The position numbers were made by a program, and so were the translations under genes. A stretch of 25,240 nt of DNA from positions 1 through 25,240 of the IMG/VR virus record IMGVR_UViG_3300047308_000014. One strand, 5' to 3'. The notes below the pieces were generated by a model. That model saw only the letters and a list, made by a program, of their open reading frames with translations, did not search any database and had not been told where the DNA came from. Every line of letters starts with the position of its first letter. Within the stretch, counting starts at the first letter, position 1. This document shows, one piece after another, positions 5,193 to 15,528 of this stretch. This DNA comes from a virus. Lineage: Duplodnaviria > Caudoviricetes.

Positions 5193-7226
5193 TTAAATGA
5201 TTGACCAATTACTACTGGTCGGCACAGTAACTTCTACACCATTTGCAAGCGTAGTTGGTCCTACACTCAAAGCATTTGAAGAACTAGCCACGGTAGATGT
5301 TTGATTTAAAGTTTTTGGGTTTTGCAAAAATGGGACGTTTAAATACAAAGAGGTGCCATCAAACACCATATTATTATTGGCGTTACCAGTCACCATCCGT
5401 CCATCAGCATACAAATATGTGCCAGCACCAGTCATGGTATTGCCACTAATCTGAGGAAGGTTGCCTGATATACCTACTTGAAGAGCATTAGTAAATACAG
5501 TTGTTGTAGATATTTTGTCGGCAGTGATTGTATTTTGAACAATCAAACTACCAGTAATATAAGTGGCTTGAGTAATCCAAGGATAACTACCGCTTGTATA
5601 TCTCCAAACAGTAGCGTTGCTATTATTGTTGTAGCTAACAGTACAAATATCACCAGCTACTGGAGTTCTACCAATAACAGCAATACATTCAGCATCACTG
5701 GGAGATGCAGGACTAGTGCTTGGTCCTCGGTCAACTACAAAAGTAGCAGAGCCATTTAATCCATTATTGCCATTAGCCCCGTTATATGCAATTGCACGGA
5801 TAGGATAGCTGGTATTTGTCCAATCTAGTGGGGATGTAAGCGTGGTAGCAACCACATTCAATGGAATAGTTATTTCCCAAAGAAAGTTGCCAGCCGTAGT
5901 GTTGGTTGGAGCGTCTGTAGACCATCCAGAAGGCGCTGTATAGGCACCAGTTGCCCAATCGTATGTAGAGGTCGTTGACGGCCTTGTAGGAGGCACTGAG
6001 GAGCCTGTCCACAAATAGATGGACGGGAATGCCGACATGATTCCATTAGCCCCGCCCACCCCTGGAATACCATCATAAACAACAGGCAAAATAATTGTTC
6101 TGCTAAGTGGGCTTAACAAGTTTGTGCCATTAACAGTAAGCGTTACTGTTACACCAGAAGAAGATGATGTTGGAGTAACAACTACAGATGCTGTTGTAGC
6201 AGAAGTAGGAGTGGCTCCAGATATTACCCAAGCATATGTTGGCGAAGTTACATTTGGCGTAACTGCTGTCAACGTAGCATTAGTTGGGGTATATGCACCA
6301 GCAGGATTTTGTACAAACCCAGTAAATCCAGATATATCAACAGATGGTCCAGAAGTGCCTTGAGCGCCGGGATCTGCAAATACAAGTTGAACCCTAGCTA
6401 CTGATGCTTGACTAACAACACCTAAACTGTTTTTATATCTAACCGGGACGTTGATATATGCAGGACTGGCAGACATTGCTGTTGGCGCAGGCCACAAAGC
6501 ATAATCACCAGCATCCGTTGGATTGCCAATGGTTATATTCGTATAGGAAATATCCCCATTACCAGTGGTTGATGAGTTACCAATACGCCAAGAGTTATTG
6601 ACAAACCCCACATTACTGTCTGTCTGTGCGTCAGTAAATGGGACAACAACGCCGCCATCAGTAGAAAACATGACTGGGTTGACGTTGGTAAAGACTGGAG
6701 AAAGAGGGTTACCAGTCCTTGGAACCTGCATTGTGGCTGGCGTAAAGTACGAAAAGAATGTTTCCGCAATCACCGGGATATTCCCAGAAGTCACCACATC
6801 AAGATCGATGGATGCGCCTGGGTCTATTAACCAACCAGCATCTGGAGCCGCAGTGGCAACTGCAAATTGAATCTGACGGCCACCAGTACATATAAACCAA
6901 AGAAACTTGGTAACCCCAAAACCACCCGTTGCTTGAGTCCAAATATAATCAACAGGATTAGAAGATTCAGCGGCATCATTATTATTTCTGATGCCAAAGT
7001 ACTGCCTGTTTGTAGGCGAGTTGCTAAAGTTAACAGAGCCATCAAAGCTGTCAGCATATTTGACAGCCATATACTTGTATAAATATCCTTGTACTTCCCC
7101 GGTAGGCCCACTGATCTGACCTGTATTAGGGTCAGCCGTGTAACTTGTGTTGAAATTACTCAATACATAGTTAAGCGCATCAGATATCTCCGATGTTGTG
7201 GGATTACCGTCAAGCAAAAAAGGCAT
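5193..7226 (-). CDS. Tail fibre/spike-like structural protein
   Basis: 677 aa, T/S/G/N-rich beta-type modules with short Gly-X-Y linkers (GAQGTSG, GNNGLNG) and a C-terminal NALSVGP..VTVP..W cap. Translationally coupled to the nozzle gene (TAATG overlap). Confidence 0.7.
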   Translation of the reverse strand: MPFLLDGNPTTSEISDALNYVLSNFNTSYTADPNTGQISGPTGEVQGYLYKYMAVKYADSFDGSVNFSNSPTNRQYFGIRNNNDAAESSNPVDYIWTQATGGFGVTKFLWFICTGGRQIQFAVATAAPDAGWLIDPGASIDLDVVTSGNIPVIAETFFSYFTPATMQVPRTGNPLSPVFTNVNPVMFSTDGGVVVPFTDAQTDSNVGFVNNSWRIGNSSTTGNGDISYTNITIGNPTDAGDYALWPAPTAMSASPAYINVPVRYKNSLGVVSQASVARVQLVFADPGAQGTSGPSVDISGFTGFVQNPAGAYTPTNATLTAVTPNVTSPTYAWVISGATPTSATTASVVVTPTSSSSGVTVTLTVNGTNLLSPLSRTIILPVVYDGIPGVGGANGIMSAFPSIYLWTGSSVPPTRPSTTSTYDWATGAYTAPSGWSTDAPTNTTAGNFLWEITIPLNVVATTLTSPLDWTNTSYPIRAIAYNGANGNNGLNGSATFVVDRGPSTSPASPSDAECIAVIGRTPVAGDICTVSYNNNSNATVWRYTSGSYPWITQATYITGSLIVQNTITADKISTTTVFTNALQVGISGNLPQISGNTMTGAGTYLYADGRMVTGNANNNMVFDGTSLYLNVPFLQNPKTLNQTSTVASSSNALSVGPTTLANGVEVTVPTSSNWSII

Positions 7227-8842
7227 TAAAACGCATCCTCAGTGACAGTGGCCTGGAAGTTCATGGCAGTCAAATTCCAAGCATTTGTAGCATCGTTTGA
7301 TTCTACTTTTATGGACACAGTCCGTACATTGTTTTGCTGAGTTGTCACCCAAGGCGTATCAGTAGAAATATTTGTAACCCCAGTAGCCCCATAAACAGGG
7401 GTTTGAGCAGTGGAGTTAGCACCGCCAACAGTGATATTGACCGTCCCAGTACCTGCAATCTCAGGCAACATCCTGTGGACATAGACCCTAGAACTGTACG
7501 GAACAGGTCCAGTGTCTGTAGACAAGGTCATGTTAGTTCGTTCAAACAATGCAGGAATGGGCGCTGAATTGATAAAAGAGTTGCCCTGGCCTGTCTGTAT
7601 CAACTTCTGGCTTGTTACCCCTCCACGGGCGTATGTGACGCACCTAGAGGTCAGCTTAAAAGCCCCTGAACTAAAGATGGGAGCCTCACTGGCATTGCAG
7701 GCACCATTGATCTGCTTGGGAGCATTCCATATCTGCAAGTCATAGCGGTATGACAACATACGGTTGCACCACCCAGTCGAGGTCAGATCGGGATAATAGA
7801 TCTCAATCTGGTTCTTCTGAGTGTTGTTGACCATGAAAAGACGTTCAGCATAGGTAGGGCTGAGGTTTGAGTAGAAGTAATCTCTCACCTTTTGGTTGCC
7901 CAATGGAGCAAAGTCTGACCCGTTGAACACCCAGATATCCCTACTGTCGACCCCATAAACGCTAGTGTCAGTATTTGTCCAGCAGTTGTTGTTGATCAAC
8001 CCTCGACCTTGGTTGTACAGACGGATACCAAAAATAGGTGCCGTGCTGTTTTGATAGGCAATTGGGGAAAAAACAACGGTGTCCCAGTATGAACAAACGT
8101 AGAAGTTACCGCCAAAAAAGAAGCCATCAATGATAGGCCCACGCACGGGAATCTCTTGTTCGTTGGCTACGTTATTCAAGGTGGGAACCCAGGTAGCAGG
8201 AACGCCAGTACCCGCAAATGCCTGTGACCAGCGAACAGTGGTTGGGTAGTTAATCGTAGATCCTGCCGTGAAATCTTTGGTGATGTTGCCTGCAATCAGA
8301 ATGTTTCCCACGTTGGGTGAGCAGAAGTTACGCACAAAGCCTGCCCTAGTTGCAGAGACACCAATGTCGTAATTCCACACGTAGTTGTCGGGAGCGCTGT
8401 CGTAAATGTAGATTTCTGTCGCTGTTGGCAGAAAGTACATTGGAGGACGCAAAGTGTCGTTAATGAAAAACACACTGCCCACCCAAGAAGTGGTGATGTT
8501 TAAGTCATTGGTATAACCACTCAAAGCCACGTTAGGGTTGGCTCCAACGCCGGGAGTTATATTGGTAATACCACCAGCAGTCAGCATGTACCACTTACCT
8601 TCTACAGTGGCAACAATGTAGACAAAGCTTGTTTCACTGCGAAACCCACTATTCATAAAGATAGGGTTACCAGGAATGGCAGACAGTATTTCTTGTTCGC
8701 CGTAGATCTTCTTTATTCCACGGACATCAGCCTCAACATTCAGCCCTGAGTTGTACTCATTTGGACCCAAAGCATTGCTTGGCACATCTGGAGTAAAACT
8801 CATGTTAGTGAACGGCGTTCTTAGTCTTTGATAGTCACTCAT
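7226..8842 (-). CDS. Putative tail nozzle/DNA stabilisation protein (P22 gp10-like beta-propeller)
   Basis: 538 aa, aromatic beta-rich, with a TVRWSQ..W..N.A motif and IWVFNG and YRYDLQIW blade-like segments. Size and position fit podovirus nozzle proteins. Confidence 0.65.
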   Translation of the reverse strand: MSDYQRLRTPFTNMSFTPDVPSNALGPNEYNSGLNVEADVRGIKKIYGEQEILSAIPGNPIFMNSGFRSETSFVYIVATVEGKWYMLTAGGITNITPGVGANPNVALSGYTNDLNITTSWVGSVFFINDTLRPPMYFLPTATEIYIYDSAPDNYVWNYDIGVSATRAGFVRNFCSPNVGNILIAGNITKDFTAGSTINYPTTVRWSQAFAGTGVPATWVPTLNNVANEQEIPVRGPIIDGFFFGGNFYVCSYWDTVVFSPIAYQNSTAPIFGIRLYNQGRGLINNNCWTNTDTSVYGVDSRDIWVFNGSDFAPLGNQKVRDYFYSNLSPTYAERLFMVNNTQKNQIEIYYPDLTSTGWCNRMLSYRYDLQIWNAPKQINGACNASEAPIFSSGAFKLTSRCVTYARGGVTSQKLIQTGQGNSFINSAPIPALFERTNMTLSTDTGPVPYSSRVYVHRMLPEIAGTGTVNITVGGANSTAQTPVYGATGVTNISTDTPWVTTQQNNVRTVSIKVESNDATNAWNLTAMNFQATVTEDAF

Positions 8843-9881
8843 TCATTAACTCCAGATTACTCAAAAGACGGTTGTCTGTTGGTGCAAATTCTAAAGCTTT
8901 CTTACAAAATTCAATAGCTTGATCTTTGAATCCCAAGCGATATGCCGCAATAGACGCTAGGTCATACGGGCGCTCAGTCCACACTACAGGGTCCATCGTG
9001 TAATTGATCTGTTTATCAGTAATGTTCAAAGCTGAAATAGCCGCACCATAGCACTCTGCCCACAACGACTTCCTGTAGGCGTACATAGCCAGATCCATCC
9101 AAGGTTCACGGGTTTCTGGGCACTCAGCCACAGCCAGCCGATACCACTTTACAGCCCGTTCATCTCCAAGTTCTTCATAGCACTTACCCAACAACCGCAT
9201 GGCATAACAACGCTCTGTTGTCCACACAGCGTCTGGCAGTGCTAGATACCTGTTTAAAGCCTCTATGCCTTCTCTGTGATGACCGTAGAACGTCAGTTCC
9301 CTGGCGTAGTAAAAAGCGTTTCTAGGGCATTCTTTGTCCTCTTTGACCGCTACTTTAAGCAGGTCAAGGTACTGTGATCTAGACTTTGTTGGGTCAGGGT
9401 GATGCGTGACTAGCAACATGTCTGAATGCGACCAGATTTCAGTCAGCCTGGGGTCAGGTCTGAGACTTTCATGGCAAGGGTGGTGCCAGTGATAGCCGTG
9501 GCGACTATGGATCTTTTCTGCATAGAAAGAGATGCCACTTCCCCAGTCAAACTTGTACCGCATTCTGGTGGTTTCATCCCTCCAGACACGTTCAATCTCT
9601 TGTCTCCACCCAGGTTCTAGGACTTCATCCAAGTCTAGGGATATGCAGATATCTACATCTCTGGGAAGTAAAGACAAGCAGGCATCTCTTGCCTTATCAA
9701 AGCGCCAAGGGCTGATGCAGATGTCGTAAACAACCGCACCATGCTCCTTGGCTAACTCAACAGTGTTATCTGTCGAGCCAGTGTCCGCAATAACAATGAG
9801 ATCAGCGTCTACAGCAGACTTACAAAAACGCTCAACAAACTGTGATTCGTTTTTGGATATTGCGTAGACAGCTATTTTCAT
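8835..9881 (-). CDS. Glycosyltransferase family 2 with C-terminal TPR repeats
   Basis: True start is probably ATG 9881 (MKIAVYAISKNE), overlapping the upstream stop as ATGA; 348 aa. GT-A motifs are ISKNE, IADTGSTD, FDKARD, DxD (LDLDE) and HPCHE, followed by TPR helices (FYYAREL, LLGKCYEELG, AIEFCKKALEFAP). Confidence 0.9.
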   Translation of the reverse strand: MKIAVYAISKNESQFVERFCKSAVDADLIVIADTGSTDNTVELAKEHGAVVYDICISPWRFDKARDACLSLLPRDVDICISLDLDEVLEPGWRQEIERVWRDETTRMRYKFDWGSGISFYAEKIHSRHGYHWHHPCHESLRPDPRLTEIWSHSDMLLVTHHPDPTKSRSQYLDLLKVAVKEDKECPRNAFYYARELTFYGHHREGIEALNRYLALPDAVWTTERCYAMRLLGKCYEELGDERAVKWYRLAVAECPETREPWMDLAMYAYRKSLWAECYGAAISALNITDKQINYTMDPVVWTERPYDLASIAAYRLGFKDQAIEFCKKALEFAPTDNRLLSNLELMNE

Positions 9882-10030
9882 TGCACGGTGTCTTTTACTT
9901 CTTGTACTGGCAGTTGGCCTGCAATCTTTTGAACCAGAGGCCAAGCGCCTGATCCTGTCGGCAATTGGTTGAGGACATTGATGATGTCTTTAACTTCTGC
10001 TTCCAAAAGGGTTAAGGTAATTTCTTGCAT
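9878..10030 (-). CDS. Small hypothetical protein (tail-fibre associated)
   Basis: Not in the ORF track. 50 aa, MQEITLTLLEAEVKDIINVLNQLPTGSGAWPLVQKIAGQLPVQEVKDTVQ. SD AAGGA upstream; its TGA overlaps the glycosyltransferase ATG. Confidence 0.8.
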   Translation of the reverse strand: MQEITLTLLEAEVKDIINVLNQLPTGSGAWPLVQKIAGQLPVQEVKDTVQ

Positions 10031-10042
10031 TGCTTTTCCTTG

Positions 10043-10075
10043 AAAAATGCCGCTGTTTGGGCCAGCGGGTTGCCC
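10043..10075 (-). promoter_or_regulatory. H-type pseudoknot/terminator-like RNA element
   Basis: Minus-strand RNA reads GGGC-AAC-CCGCUG-GCCC-AAA-CAGCGG-CAUUUUU. GGGC/GCCC and CCGCUG/CAGCGG are interleaved stems in a 52-nt intergenic gap. Confidence 0.55.
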
Positions 10076-10082
10076 TTATCTA

Positions 10083-10379
10083 TTATGCCCAAGGCACTCC
10101 AGTGGCGGTTACAGGGTTCTTCTGCAATTCAATCTGAGCCAGCAGGGATGCTTCCGTGGCATCCTTGTCCACGCCGCTTGTCCAGCACCAATCCAGCACT
10201 TCTTGCATGGTCACGCTGTCATAGGGGATTGTGGGTGTGCCGGGTTGCCATGAACAAGTGCTATACACAGATGCAGAGTAATCCCCATCGGTTGCATTTG
10301 CTTGCCAATGTGCGGTAGTGACAAAACCATCATAGGTTTGTCGGTCAAGTTGGGAAATGTTCCAGACTATGGTACTCAT
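10083..10379 (-). CDS. Conserved phage protein downstream of tail fibre (putative fibre assembly/accessory protein)
   Basis: 98 aa with W-rich motifs (TIVWNISQLDR, VTTAHW, IPYDSVTMQEVLDW, TGVPW). This type commonly follows S74-containing fibres. SD AAGGAG upstream. Confidence 0.7.
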   Translation of the reverse strand: MSTIVWNISQLDRQTYDGFVTTAHWQANATDGDYSASVYSTCSWQPGTPTIPYDSVTMQEVLDWCWTSGVDKDATEASLLAQIELQKNPVTATGVPWA

Positions 10380-10391
10380 GATTTAACTCCT

Positions 10392-10883
10392 TTAAGCGTG
10401 ACGGGCAAATTGCCCATGATACAAATTTCTTGCTTCGTGGGCGACCAATTCAGCAAGTTCAAAATCTTTAAATGTTCCGCAGTGAATAATTTTTTTATTT
10501 GCCATAACTCGAACCATCCAAACATTACGGTTTTTATGATAAAAAACATTTTTGCAATTTGATGTGTTGTTTTTATTTTTGTTTGCATTGTGACGGTTTT
10601 CACACCTGTTGGCAGGTCTTAAATTATCAATTTTGTTGTTTGAAATATTGCCATCAATGTGGTCAACAATTTCAGGCGTGTAACCATGCCACATTAAAAA
10701 AATAATCCTGTGAACAAGATACCGTTGGTTATTAATTTTTGTACGCAAATATGGATTTTTTCTTCCATTTGTTCCACCAACAGCATCCCCAATTTCAACA
10801 CATTGCGCCGTTGAAACTTTCCAATACAACACACCATCCTTGTACTCAAACAAGCGGTGTGCTTCTTCTTGAGTCAGGGACAT
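10392..10883 (-). CDS. HNH homing endonuclease with C-terminal AP2-like DNA-binding domain
   Basis: HNH motif YLVHRIIF..VDHIDGNISNNKIDNLR..EN and an AP2-like tail NVFYHKNRNVWMVRV..HCGTFKDFELAELVAHEAR..HGQFA. Visibly more AT-rich than its flanks. Confidence 0.92.
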   Translation of the reverse strand: MSLTQEEAHRLFEYKDGVLYWKVSTAQCVEIGDAVGGTNGRKNPYLRTKINNQRYLVHRIIFLMWHGYTPEIVDHIDGNISNNKIDNLRPANRCENRHNANKNKNNTSNCKNVFYHKNRNVWMVRVMANKKIIHCGTFKDFELAELVAHEARNLYHGQFARHA

Positions 10884-10886
10884 GAT

Positions 10887-12488
10887 TTATGCTCCTTCTA
10901 AAGCGGTTATACGGGCGGTGAGTTGGGTGATGAGGGCAGACTGTTCCTTGATTGCGGCAACCAACAAAGGTATGACTTCTGTGTACTGAACACCTAAATC
11001 ATCTGGATTGCTTGCGTCTACAGCTTCTGGTAATACCGCTTGCACATCTTGGGCGATCAAAAAACTTCTGCGAGTACCTTCTACATCTGTCTTGTACTTA
11101 CCAATAACTGCTCGGAGTGTTGATACCTTAGTCATTGCATCTGCAATGGGTTCAATAATGTCTTTTTTGCGTTCGTCAGATTGAGCAGTCCAAGATGTAC
11201 CGCCCCAAGCAATATAAGCACCTGTATTAAATGTTGTGTTGTTGTATCCATAGACAACATATTGGTCTGAACTATTCATACCAAAATTCCATTGCCTTGT
11301 GGAAGTACCTGCTGGATTTTGAGTTAAATAATTTCCAAAACCACCAGCATTTACACCAACTTGAAGTCCTTTAAACGATCCTGTTGAGATACCAGTAGTC
11401 CCCACCAGCAAGTTACCGTTTGGATCAAGAGACATCCGTTCTGCAAAAATAGTGCCGTTATAAGTCCAAAACGACATAGTCGAAACCGCACCAGAAGCTT
11501 CTGTTAATCTAATGCGCCCCGTTGGAGCCAAAGCCCCACCGCCGGGATTACCAGCCATATTTATATCAACCGCATTACCAACGGCACTGGTGGCTGAATT
11601 TATCAAAGACAGCGTAGGCCCAACAGTGCCACTTGCGGCTTTTCTTATATCAAGTATTGCTCCTGGCGATGTAGCACCAATACCCAAGTTACCGCTGGCA
11701 TCAAGCGTCATTGCTTGGGTGAAGGTGATTGCGTTACCTGCTGTGCCAGATAAGGCTGTATTCCAAATATGTAGGCCAGCATATTGCAAATATTGCTGTG
11801 AAGCTGCGGTGTTAATGTATTTCCAGTTTGCACCGTCAAAATAACAGTTGTTTGCAAAGGTTGTGTTGTTACTGCTATCAGTTGAAATAGAGCCTTGTTT
11901 GACTTGTACCGCTTTAAAAATGCTAGTCCAAGCACTAGGCGTAACACCCAATCCCAAGTTACCGCTGGCATCAAGGAACATCTGGTTTGTGCTGGCGGTG
12001 GTAAACAATACTTTATTGTTGACAGCATCAAAAGCAATGCCGTTTCCAGAGGCTCCCACGCCCGTTGCAATTGCCGCATATGTGGCATCGGTATACACAA
12101 ACAATGATTTGTTGGATGCCCCGCCATTTGTAAATCGTGCCACATCACCCGCAGCGGCTTTTGACACATCCAACTTATAAGTGGGCGAAACACCCACCCC
12201 CAAGTTCGTACCATCAAACACCAACGCACTACCCGTAGCCAAAGCACTTGTGCTTGAGGCATACACCACACCATTTGCGGTAAATGAAGTTAAGCCTGTG
12301 CCGCCAGCAGTAGTAGGGGTTAATTTATAACCAATTTTTTGAACTACGTTACTGCTGTCTTTGTAAAACAATATGCCATCAGCAGTGTTGATTGCCAACT
12401 CACCAGCCGCAAGGTTAGCCGCCAAAGGAGTATTGGTTGCAGTGCTTGAAGAATAAAGCTGGATGGGAGTGTAGTTAGTTTGTGCCAT
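10887..12488 (-). CDS. Tail fibre protein with C-terminal intramolecular chaperone (peptidase S74)
   Basis: 533 aa with an N-terminal LAAGELAINTADGILFYKD anchor, repeated LDxxGNLxxG knob modules, an SDERKKDII autocleavage motif, LIAQDVQAVLPEAV and a coiled-coil end. Confidence 0.9.
   Translation of the reverse strand: MAQTNYTPIQLYSSSTATNTPLAANLAAGELAINTADGILFYKDSSNVVQKIGYKLTPTTAGGTGLTSFTANGVVYASSTSALATGSALVFDGTNLGVGVSPTYKLDVSKAAAGDVARFTNGGASNKSLFVYTDATYAAIATGVGASGNGIAFDAVNNKVLFTTASTNQMFLDASGNLGLGVTPSAWTSIFKAVQVKQGSISTDSSNNTTFANNCYFDGANWKYINTAASQQYLQYAGLHIWNTALSGTAGNAITFTQAMTLDASGNLGIGATSPGAILDIRKAASGTVGPTLSLINSATSAVGNAVDINMAGNPGGGALAPTGRIRLTEASGAVSTMSFWTYNGTIFAERMSLDPNGNLLVGTTGISTGSFKGLQVGVNAGGFGNYLTQNPAGTSTRQWNFGMNSSDQYVVYGYNNTTFNTGAYIAWGGTSWTAQSDERKKDIIEPIADAMTKVSTLRAVIGKYKTDVEGTRRSFLIAQDVQAVLPEAVDASNPDDLGVQYTEVIPLLVAAIKEQSALITQLTARITALEGA
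11683..11975. repeat. 23-bp perfect direct repeat inside tail fibre gene
   Basis: cccaagttaccgctggcatcaag occurs at 11683-11705 and 11953-11975 (270-nt period) and encodes LDASGNLG. Confidence 0.9.
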
Positions 12489-12497
12489 TTTTTAACC

Positions 12498-12989
12498 TCA
12501 GAATGTGCCGCCGCTTACGCCACCAAGAACAGTTAAGTATATTGAAGAACCAGTCAGTTGAACCCAAGTGGTTGATTCTTTTATCCAAACTGTTTGAGGG
12601 GTTGTGTTTGTTTGTACGTACAGTTGATTAGATACACCATCACCACTTCCTGGCGCATTTGTACCCGTCAAAATAGGCAATCCAGCACCGCTAGAGTAAG
12701 CAAATTGCCCAGGCGTTGACCAAGTCAGACTGCTTGCGTTTTTACTGTTGACTACTGCAATTGATACCCACACCAAAGTAGTCGGCGTTGTAGGTGGTGT
12801 TGTCGACCAGCCAGCGGGAGGTACTCCAGTGTTAGTCGTGAAGTCCCAAGAGCCACCAGTTGGCGTTGCAGGTGCAGATGCACTTTGTTGAAACACAAAC
12901 CACTGAAAGTATGTGCCGCCAACAGTAAATCCACTGCCATACAAGCCAACGGATTCAGCATTCCCGCCGTAAAAACTAGCTGTGGTCAA
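12498..12989 (-). CDS. Short structural protein, paralogue of the collagen-like fibre termini
   Basis: 163 aa. Residues ~10-96 align with the N-terminus of 12986..14533 (GLYG..GGTYF..TPTGGSW.F.TN.G.PP.GWS.TPP), and both proteins end GVSGGTF. Confidence 0.8.
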
Positions 12990-14533
12990 AATGTACCCCC
13001 AGAAACGCCTGTAGTAGCGTTGATGCTACCAATAACAGACAGTTGTGTACCACTCCACACCAGATTAGCCGATCCAGCCAAAGCGCCAGCGTTGTTGTAC
13101 TGCACTTGAGTTGTTGACCCGCCAATAGCTGGAGTTGCTCCCGTGGGGCCTGTGGGGCCTATTGCTCCCGTAGGTCCTGTTGGCCCAGTCACAGTTGAGG
13201 CGGCACCCGTAGCACCCGTGGGGCCAGTAGGTCCAGTGGGGCCTATAGATCCAGTTGGACCAGTTGGGCCAAGCTGGGTGTACATGACTTGCGTAGCAGT
13301 GACAATAAGACTTGCAGTTGAAGGAGTTGTTGGAGTAGTTCCTCCTGCATACGCTTGTAACGTAACAGCAGTATTAGATGCTTGCCAATAAAGCTCTAAG
13401 TAATCATTTGCCGCAAGAGTTAAAACATAATTCCAGCCTACAACTGAGTGACCATCAATACCACCGTGTTTAGCTGGGATGGCAATAAATCCTGTTGATC
13501 CTGTTAAATCTGTTCCGTTTTTACGCACCCAAACTTGAACATCATGTTCTTGAGTATCTGTGTTTTGAAATTGACCAGACCATTGAAAGTTGTATGTCCC
13601 AGCATTTGTAAACACAACTCTTGATGTTGGGCTTCCTATAGAAACTCCATTAGCTTCATCAGTTGTGTTTAATGTCATTGCATAAGCAGTTGTAGTGCTT
13701 GCAATAGTTTGAGTTGTTGTGTCTTGGAATGCTCCGTAATACCCCAAAGCACCACCAGCACCTGTACCGCCTGTTGGACCAGTTGCACCCGTAGGGCCTG
13801 TAGCGCCAATAGCACCTGTTGGGCCAGTAGGACCAGTGACGGTAGATGCCGCACCTGTCGGACCTGTCGGACCTGTTGGCCCTTGAATACCCTGTGCGCC
13901 CGTGGGACCTGTTGGACCAGTGACACCTTGAATGCCTTGCGGACCTGTAGGACCAGTGGGACCAATGTCTCCAGTAGGCCCAGTAGCGCCAGTGGGACCT
14001 GTAACACCCTGAATACCCTGTGGGCCAGTTGGTCCTGTAGCCCCCGTAGGGCCTGTTACCCCTTGGATGCCTTGAGCGCCTGTTGGACCAGTGGCTCCAG
14101 TTGGGCCTGTAACGCCCTGGATGCCTTGTGAACCCGTTGGCCCTGTAGCACCTGTAGGACCAGTAGGACCCAAAGGACCAGTTGGGCCAATAGGACCCGT
14201 AGGACCTTGTTTAAAGATTTGCCCAGGAATTGACCAAACCAGTGCCGCTGAATCTCTTGAATTAACCAGCGCAATAGACAGCCAAACAATGGTGGTTGGG
14301 CTTACAGGTGGCGTGTTACTCCAGCCAGTCGGAGGAGTGCCTACGTTGGTTACAAAACTCCATGACCCACCCGTGGGCGTACCAGGGTTGGTAGCACTTT
14401 CTAAGAATATGAGGTATTCAAAGTAAGTCCCACCAAGCGTAGTGGGATTGCCGTACAGACCAGCGGTTTCTGCGCCCGTGGAGGCCGCAACAGTACCAGT
14501 TGCACTGCTTCCGTAAAGACCACCTGTTGCCAT
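12986..14533 (-). CDS. Collagen-like fibre protein with internal C1q/TNF-like (BclA-CTD-like) domain
   Basis: 515 aa with two Gly-X-Y tracts dominated by GPT. Between them is a beta-sandwich, [41 protein letters not shown], that fits the C1q-like pattern. Confidence 0.85.
13137..13270 (-). repeat. Collagen Gly-X-Y repeat tract (short)
   Basis: Encodes [46 protein letters not shown]; boundaries are approximate. Confidence 0.85.
13751..14206 (-). repeat. Collagen Gly-X-Y repeat tract (long)
   Basis: About 150 codons of GPT/GAT triplets with a recurring 18-aa unit [18 protein letters not shown] and synonymous codon variation between units. Confidence 0.9.
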
Positions 14534-14541
14534 GATGCTCC

Positions 14542-15528
14542 TTACTTGAACGAATATCTGTAGTCACGGGGCTGGAATTCTGATGTGAGGTGTTGATCAC
14601 CACCACGCCATTTATCCTTGAAGTTTTGATCTTCAATTAAGCCATAAGCCTCATCAATTCTGGTTTTCCATTTTTGGGCTTCTTCCACGTTTTTGTTTTT
14701 GTCGTAATACGATTCAAGAGTACCGTAAAAGTAACCTTCAGGGAAAGATGCCAGCGCACCATTGTTCTGCACAATAGGACTGATTGCATCCCCAGTAGGG
14801 CTAAACAAGAATGGGAAGGTACGTGTGTAATACGCCTTGATTTCTACGTTTGCACCAGGGTTTGGCGTAAACACATAATTAGGTCCGACTTCAGAGAATG
14901 ACGCACGGATTACCCGTGGAACGCCAAAAGGACGCACATACAGTTGGTCAATCATGCGGCGGCGAATGATCTCTCTGTCGCCAACACGGTCATAAATAAT
15001 CCAAGGGCCCATAGATGCCGCTGGAGTCCCAGGTGCCACGTTGCTATTGGGTGTCTCTTGAAAGAACAAAATAGGCCAGTTCATATCCGCAGGGATAGGA
15101 GCCATGCCGTTTGTGTCTGTAGTCAAAATAGTAGGATTTGCCCCATATGGATTTGTCCGCAATGCAGGCAACTCAATCGTCCGCATTTTCAATTCAGCAA
15201 ACTGAATACAAGACTGAATCTCAATAGAAGACTGAGTAGGAAGCTTCAAAATAGCTGTTGGCAAGGAAAGACCAGTCCACACGCCATCTGGGTCGTTAAC
15301 CAAAATAGTGGTGGTGGTCACCTCTAAAACAACGGTAAAGCTATTTATTAAACTGGGGCCGATAAAGTCGCCAACTTGAACAACAGAAGTTGGATTGGCA
15401 GATGTGGTGATAAGGCCTGTTGAAGTGTTGATTGAACTGGCGTTGATACCAGTTGCTGATGGGATTGCGCCTATCCACTGTGCTACTCGGCTAACTAAAA
15501 TATTAGCTGATTGAATGAATAGGGCCAT
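14542..15528 (-). CDS. Putative head-to-tail adaptor protein
   Basis: 328 aa with [17 protein letters not shown], a YY motif, [10 protein letters not shown] and a C-terminal EAQKWK..EA helix. The pattern and the position after the capsid genes fit podovirus adaptors. Confidence 0.7.

Follow-up and report, generated by a model that had tools for sequence, protein, structure and literature searches.

A GT2-TPR glycosyltransferase gene paired with Gly-Pro-Thr collagen tail fibres in SU10-like phages, a probable fibre O-glycosylation system

We analysed a 25,240-base virus record from IMG/VR (IMGVR_UViG_3300047308_000014, positions 1 to 25,240; this whole stretch is hereafter the window), in which the minus strand carries the virion module of a short-tailed, SU10-like phage, with genes for terminase, SU10 portal, SU10 major capsid protein (MCP), adaptor, a variable fibre block and nozzle. 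The variable block encodes a family 2 glycosyltransferase with tetratricopeptide repeats (GT2-TPR; below, the GT) and a collagen-like fibre rich in Gly-Pro-Thr (GPT) triplets (Table 1). A preliminary description of this DNA had suggested that the phage glycosylates its own fibres. We found that the GT is strictly paired with long GPT tracts across the phage lineage and is replaced by another cassette where the fibre repeat is Gly-X-Ser. The best-matching run for the window is a freshwater metagenome (X1), possibly the sample it came from, whose contigs match it without a differing letter, one of them spanning the entire collagen gene; two RNA runs (X19 and X20) yielded contigs only from relatives, mostly at 90%–95% identity to the window. 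In G001, a complete relative with 97% identity in the GT, genes for a GH19 lysin and an Rz-like protein suggest a Gram-negative host, and GT homologues at 68% were found in Burkholderiaceae genomes.

The GT has a GT2 domain (PF00535, E 1.9e-6, 28.3 bits against a cut-off of 23.3) and TPRs (PF13428, E 9.5e-6). Its DTGSTD motif occupies residues 33–38 and its DxD motif lies within LDLDE (D83–D85); all 44 aligned homologues share D33, T34, G35, S36, D38, D83, D85 and E86 without exception, and T37 is conserved in at least 90%. Pfam score, invariant motifs and fold all place the enzyme in the GT2 (PF00535) GT-A class, so that the intact motifs and repeats described earlier stand. The earlier remark that the gene overlaps both neighbours in the tail block is also true once its start is corrected from a TTG at 9944, which we rejected, to the ATG at 9881 (348 aa): the 50-aa open reading frame (ORF) at 10030–9878 closes with an ATGA that overlaps the GT start, and the nozzle gene begins 8 bases before the GT ends. 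The structural model of the GT (pLDDT, the predicted local distance difference test, of 94.1) had chains of the peptide glycosyltransferases SunS and ThuS as its top six fold matches (E 1e-13 to 1e-15), and by sequence the catalytic part of the family profile matched GmaR, ThuS and SunS. GmaR is the flagellin glycosyltransferase of Listeria. The GT does not belong to the SunS family of peptide S-glycosyltransferases (TIGR04195; 15.2 vs. 350 bits), and no glycocin precursor was recognised in the block. The GT family is large (∼5000 protein clusters in one search) and common in Bacillota. Three close homologues (P0047, P0079 and P0092) are fused to a C-terminal methyltransferase, which suggests methylated glycans.

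The preliminary description had pointed to SgtA of C. difficile and other protein O-glycosyltransferases for comparison. We retrieved SgtA via a primer printed in PMC7157674, its identity being backed by bclA3 directly behind it, which contains the BclA3 peptide SML7. SgtA adds beta-O-GlcNAc to Thr of GPT/GAT peptides and uses UDP-GlcNAc and Mn2+ (PMC7157674). The GT aligned with SgtA end to end, with the same size and domain order (27% identity over 368 columns, E 3e-26; HHalign, 98.9% over 329 columns). This full-length homology over the GT2 and C-terminal TPR parts, together with the genetic coupling to GPT collagen, is what one would expect of an SgtA-like collagen O-glycosyltransferase, and the fold matches that of peptide glycosyltransferases. 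In a quick tree with a midpoint root and 38 hand-picked rows, SgtA grouped with L699_462 (99, starred), apart from the clade of the window. Judged by sequence, the GT is built like SgtA and is not its orthologue. Tandem pairs of GT2-TPR genes occur in several bacteria (L699:462-2733, L657, L667, L684, L690, L698 and L711), most of them beside GPT collagen; the tandem of a Paenibacillus locus consists of one SgtA-like enzyme and one of the window's family.

The fibre is the putative proximal long tail fibre because its gene lies directly behind that of the adaptor, just as gp12 follows gp11 in SU10 (PMC9509320). Its 40-triplet tract is nearly charge-free. Sequence comparison with Pfam and a PDB profile did not recognise the internal domain; its AlphaFold model (pLDDT 95.7) matched TNF/C1q folds, including the C-terminal domains of BclA (9h38 and 1wck; E 6e-8 to 5e-7). 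The fibre had been described as a BclA-like GPT-collagen/C1q protein: its 31 GPT triplets and TNF/C1q fold bear this out, and the arrangement departs from it, with the domain internal between two tracts here and C-terminal in BclA. We rejected the C1q domain as a marker of the system and, contrary to the earlier proposal, found no support for it as a component, as the 59 distinct ORFs that have it comprise 36 with GPT, 16 with Gly-X-Ser and 7 repeat-free fibres.

We collected relatives through their core tail genes, without regard to the GT (80 loci via the nozzle and 80 via the adaptor). The whole block was present in 83 of the 160 loci, the other 77 being dropped as incomplete, and 73 blocks were left after dereplication at 99.5%. 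These fell into three states with one exception: 31 had GPT and the GT, 13 had Gly-X-Ser and another cassette, 28 had neither, and one (L242) had six GPT triplets and no GT. The GT occurred in all 31 blocks with at least 13 GPT (range 13–54) and in none of the 42 others (Fisher 8e-20, uncorrected), a pattern that persisted when dereplication was set to 95% (59 rows) or 90% (50 rows). In a tree built from adaptor and nozzle, with the window added, the GT and the GPT tract changed 11 times each; among nine independent pairs located on starred branches, an average of 8.8 showed the second trait changing in the same direction and none showed the opposite (p ∼0.004). A first tree of 35 rows held only four independent pairs (p 0.125), and the set was then enlarged. 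The co-occurrence that the preliminary description had anticipated among related phages is borne out in a sample both GT-blind and tree-corrected; the pairing is real and non-random, and comparative evidence supports it well. Within these blocks GT-less phages have at most six GPT and GT-bearing phages at least 13, which is consistent with longer tracts having the greater need.

The Gly-X-Ser blocks have a proline-free Gly-(Tyr/Phe/Ile/Trp)-Ser repeat in this same gene of the fibre, and the repeat often flanks the C1q domain found in GPT fibres. In all 13, another GT2 cassette occupies the slot of the GT just before the nozzle: a 322-aa GT2 and a GT9-like gene, usually accompanied by a methyltransferase or GT2-methyltransferase. 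Pfam reported no TPR in these glycosyltransferases, and the family profile of the window GT did not match the 322-aa GT2. In whole records PF00535 matched none of the 29 that lack a long repeat, 14 of them near-complete, but all 13 with Gly-X-Ser and all 8 tested with GPT, seven of these eight coming from the 31 GT-bearing blocks; a search with one alignment (A3) of the 42 GT-less records found nothing, the positives coming from the separate whole-record searches. Two single blocks differ further. In one (L262:1829-5247) the slot holds bAvd and a reverse transcriptase, resembling a diversity-generating retroelement, then a sulfotransferase and an adenosine-phosphosulfate (APS)-kinase-like gene, possibly a further fibre-modifying cassette. 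In one GPT phage (L290:7828-8934) a 2-oxoglutarate (2OG)-Fe(II) oxygenase that could be a prolyl hydroxylase stands directly before the GT.

We asked what else in the block the GT might follow. In 30 GT-bearing blocks the fibre and the GT are separated by 0–8 genes (0–5.6 kb), and the window's intervening gene families occur both with and without the GT (Table 1). The proportion of Thr in fibres barely differs between blocks with the GT (0.154) and those without it (0.153), so we rejected general Thr/Ser richness as a predictor of the GT and found no support for the earlier suggestion that the other Thr/Ser-rich fibres are substrates. Intervening genes found on both sides and equal Thr content together indicate that the GT follows the repeat and not the neighbourhood or Thr content. 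They bear as well on the idea that the GT glycosylates another virion protein (capsid, nozzle or another Thr/Ser-rich fibre) and is linked to the collagen only by position. Phage glycosyltransferases that modify capsid and tail tube are known (Freeman 2023 cited in PMC12363180, PMC10877033), the GT overlaps the nozzle gene, and its homologues in jumbo phages sit among head genes. However, capsid and nozzle are highly similar in phages with and without the GT (MCP 82%–93% identical to that of the window), and the GT tracks the GPT tract only, across up to eight intervening genes; we consider another virion target quite unlikely. As for annotation, one GenBank record (MW202484.1, L748) has an antisense frame annotated over the major capsid gene (7955-9004).

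Table 1. Features of the variable fibre block and its boundaries in the window (GT+ and GT−, blocks with and without the GT).
Feature	Positions	Strand	Basis or remark
Nozzle protein	7226..8842	−	Match to 8zkk nozzle gp16, E 2.3e-8; downstream boundary of the variable block
GT2-TPR glycosyltransferase (GT), SgtA/SunS-like, 348 aa	8835..9881	−	No signal or membrane segment evident
50-aa ORF overlapping GT start	9878..10030	−	Family in 5 GT+ and 9 GT− blocks; no GT linkage
DUF7936 protein	10083..10379	−	Family in 6 GT+ and 7 GT− blocks; no GT linkage
HNH-AP2 endonuclease	10392..10883	−	Likely mobile insert, since contigs in two runs cleanly skip 10364-10879
Tail fibre with Peptidase_S74 chaperone	10887..12488	−	No GPT tract; GT linkage not seen
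163-aa paralogue of collagen-fibre N-terminal domain	12498..12989	−	Family in 3 GT+ and 4 GT− blocks; no GT linkage
Collagen-like fibre, 515 aa, 31 GPT	12986..14533	−	Putative proximal long tail fibre, likely acceptor
Distal collagen tracts of fibre, 8 and 6 triplets (9 GPT)	13133..13270	−	Triplet count
Internal TNF/C1q-fold domain of fibre, likely trimerisation	13271..13753	−	Residues ~261-421; optional among relatives
Main collagen tract of fibre, 40 unbroken Gly-X-Y triplets	13847..14206	−	Residues 110-229; 18 GPT, 26 triplets with Thr in Y
N-terminal ~105-aa domain of fibre, putative virion anchor	14219..14533	−	Found in GPT, Gly-X-Ser and repeat-free alleles
SU10-type adaptor (candidate)	14542..15528	−	Model features and synteny, no sequence match in PDB; upstream boundary of the variable block

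Outside the lineage, we scanned part of IMG/VR with repeat-anchored patterns and fetched flanks (up to 10 kb) for 80 loci each. The GT family (at least 200 bits) was found in 16 of 70 GPT contigs, 2 of 75 Gly-Pro-Gln (GPQ) contigs and 0 of 29 Gly-X-Ser contigs (GPT vs. GPQ, p 2e-4, uncorrected for kinship or habitat), and both positive GPQ contigs also have GPT-rich collagens. The other cassette showed the converse distribution (18 of 29 Gly-X-Ser, 0 of 70 GPT and 0 of 75 GPQ contigs). Among whole records, with 50 loci given per set and chosen among the longer ones, full-length family members were present in 18 of 45 GPT-anchored and 2 of 48 GPQ records; two further GPQ records had intermediate GT matches and Thr-rich collagens. 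Anchoring on the GT instead, in sets selected for it and containing kin, we found a GPT collagen in 59 of 80 viral loci (all 35 of those with 7.5 kb or more upstream) and 53 of 80 bacterial loci (33 of 43 with 5 kb on both sides). In some GPT-collagen phages without the GT2-TPR enzyme, a GT4 (GT-B) gene adjoins the collagen (L085:6080-7129 and L144:17158-18213), possibly a third pairing. By our estimates IMG/VR holds ∼9700 GPT and ∼1600 GY(S/T) stretches.

Two cultured phages, DSL-LC01 and P19250A, carry the two alleles. The actinophage DSL-LC01 (OQ999401.1, L734:6535-13077) has two GPT collagens (WJZ48555/WJZ48556; 17 and 22 GPT), a halogenase-annotated gene and then a GT homologue (WJZ48552), a family member of 47.6% identity. 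The Methylophilaceae phage P19250A (KX815270.1, L747:7759-13409, gp23-26) has a 1201-aa fibre with 281 Gly-X-Y triplets, mostly Gly-X-Ser, which is annotated as a tape measure; the cassette of methyltransferase, GT2 and GT9-like genes follows, all annotated as hypothetical.

Published readings of aquatic phage glycosyltransferases favour protection of DNA (PMC10202952) or a change of the host surface (PMC10202952, PMC7029224). That the GT modifies host lipopolysaccharide (LPS) or cell wall against superinfection would agree with the label of its match PHROG 13126 (beta-1,4-glycosyltransferase) and with the annotation of its PaBG homologue as a lipooligosaccharide (LOS) glucosyltransferase. Both labels are untested annotations, however, and the best fold matches are peptide glycosyltransferases; no LPS family passed for the GT among NCBIfam models or appeared among the fold matches listed, a comparison of models and folds that did not extend to LPS glycosyltransferase sequences themselves. 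Moreover, Bacillota, in which the family is common, mostly lack LPS, and a host-surface role leaves it unexplained that the type of glycosyltransferase follows the type of fibre repeat; we hold such a role to be very unlikely. Glycosylation of the phage DNA against restriction, proposed for freshwater actinophage enzymes (PMC10202952), earns next to no credence from us here. The GT sits in a tail operon, no DNA glycosyltransferase was among the listed fold matches of its model, and neither a hydroxymethylase nor a TET/JBP gene was seen among 26 window proteins or 20 scanned non-structural ORFs of a near-identical complete genome.

We conclude that the probable substrate of the GT is the phage's own collagen fibre, whose Thr it would O-glycosylate, perhaps enabling the fibre to fold. 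A soluble SgtA-like GT2-TPR enzyme would act in the infected cell on Thr in the Y position of the GPT tail fibre. Its TPR half may bind the unfolded, polyproline-II-like chain and, by analogy with SgtA, its GT-A half may transfer a sugar to Thr from a host nucleotide-sugar; no sugar-pathway genes were seen in the near-identical complete genome. The C1q domain would trimerise the chain, and the GT would take the job of a prolyl hydroxylase, giving a stiff, hydrated stalk. We lean modestly towards folding as the most likely purpose, if the fibre is glycosylated, because (Gly-Pro-Thr)10 stays a random coil until its Thr is galactosylated (Bann 2000 cited in PMC11923368). Shielding or adhesion may be side effects.

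One could instead suppose that the TPR half is a folding chaperone for the collagen, with sugar transfer secondary or absent, and this would explain the co-occurrence equally well. The family profile does weakly match the peptide-binding TPR domain of collagen prolyl 4-hydroxylase (P4H; E 0.003–0.01), and SgtA matches TPR_P4H below the cut-off, but these P4H matches are no better than generic TPR hits. A chaperone would also be hard to square with nucleotide-sugar and metal-binding motifs that none of the 44 aligned homologues has lost, or with a Gly-X-Ser replacement cassette made of glycosyltransferases in which TPRs go unreported by Pfam. We judge it highly improbable.

Several observations weigh against glycosylation of the collagen fibre by the GT. 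The only characterised close homologue, SgtA, is 27% identical and belongs to a sister clade. The GT and the fibre share one variable block, and co-transfer is a less probable but conceivable explanation of their pairing; one chaperone-like gene family is likewise enriched with the GT (10 GT-bearing blocks vs. 1 GT-less), although it is absent from 21 of the 31 GT-bearing blocks. In L242 and L748 six GPT triplets occur without the GT, and the Gly-X-Ser pairing comprises only four independent pairs (4 of 4 agree, p 0.125). Nor is the GT family required for every GPT collagen: 27 of the 45 GPT-anchored records lack a full-length member, and among the 11 near-complete ones four yielded no family match at all. 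One of these four has a GT4 ∼1.2 kb from the collagen and another a GT2 ∼8 kb away; the remaining two have mixed charged collagens and no glycosyltransferase among the genes scanned. Conversely, 10 of 43 well-flanked bacterial GT loci have no GPT collagen. In jumbo phages (PaBG, Y3 and Afa-NA1) homologues of 26%–33% lie among head genes with no collagen within 8–10 kb, and the four collagens of these phages are 15–45 kb from the homologue, with only 0–6 GPT each. In these and related phages (L735-L737 and L749-L751) the distant homologue stands between DNA ligase and the head protease, and the collagens are short and charged; Y3 is a 'hairy' phage.

The replacement of one repeat and enzyme by another invites a broader model, to which we give slightly less than even credence: aquatic phages may swap 'repeat plus enzyme' units (GPT with GT2-TPR, Gly-(Tyr/Phe/Ile)-Ser with GT2, GT9 and methyltransferase, and in some cases GPT with GT4), in which a sugar on the Y-position hydroxyl would enable the triple helix. 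The Ser allele would then be a collagen-like helix without proline or charge, held together by glycosylation. If this model is true, the fibres form a widespread class of viral glycoproteins now misread as LPS or DNA modification.

Our literature searches on phage glycosyltransferases with collagen or fibres, whose coverage left out most subscription papers and supplements, found no description of the pairing. If the GT does act on the fibre, phage virion glycosylation extends from mycobacteriophage capsids to the tail fibres of abundant aquatic phages, and a glycosyltransferase family now filed in databases as host-modifying would be reassigned. PMC11923368 remarks on an anomalously high frequency of Thr-Gly-Pro triplets in viruses and leaves open at which point, and to what extent, glycosylation of Thr is the driver of folding; the pairing makes this question testable. 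If confirmed, the GT would also be of use for recombinant collagen, as a soluble enzyme able to stabilise collagen that lacks hydroxyproline.

Among known systems, C. difficile SgtA (a 358-aa GT2-TPR enzyme) and BclA3 are closest, with motifs KNE, DTGSTD, LDxD, WxxPxHE and PRxxFYYxREL common to both enzymes and a GPT/GAT collagen nearby; the presumed acceptor is a virion fibre here and a spore coat protein (exosporium) there, and the genes are 3.1 kb apart in the window. Bacillus BclA and F-BclA likewise join a GPT collagen region to a TNF/C1q-fold domain, whereas that of the phage fibre is internal and optional and its N-terminus is phage-specific, shared with phage fibres and devoid of an exosporium anchor. 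EPclA of an E. coli prophage is also a collagen-like phage tail fibre, but it is rich in the charged triplets GPK, GER and GET and stable as a recombinant protein without glycan (PMC3368898), whereas the window's tracts are almost charge-free. SunS and ThuS (glycocin S/O-glycosyltransferases) and GmaR share the GT-A fold with C-terminal TPRs, but they are only 15%–18% identical to the GT, and no bacteriocin or flagellin gene lies near it. Finally, mycobacteriophages (Che8, Corndog and Myrna) provide the precedent of phage-encoded glycosyltransferases acting on their own virion proteins, there the capsid and tail tube with a link to antibody shielding (Freeman 2023 cited in PMC12363180, PMC10877033); in the window the genes point to a collagen fibre repeat as the target, and the role may be folding. 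As we read it, the pairing combines two known kinds, the chemistry of SgtA/BclA3 and phage virion glycosylation.

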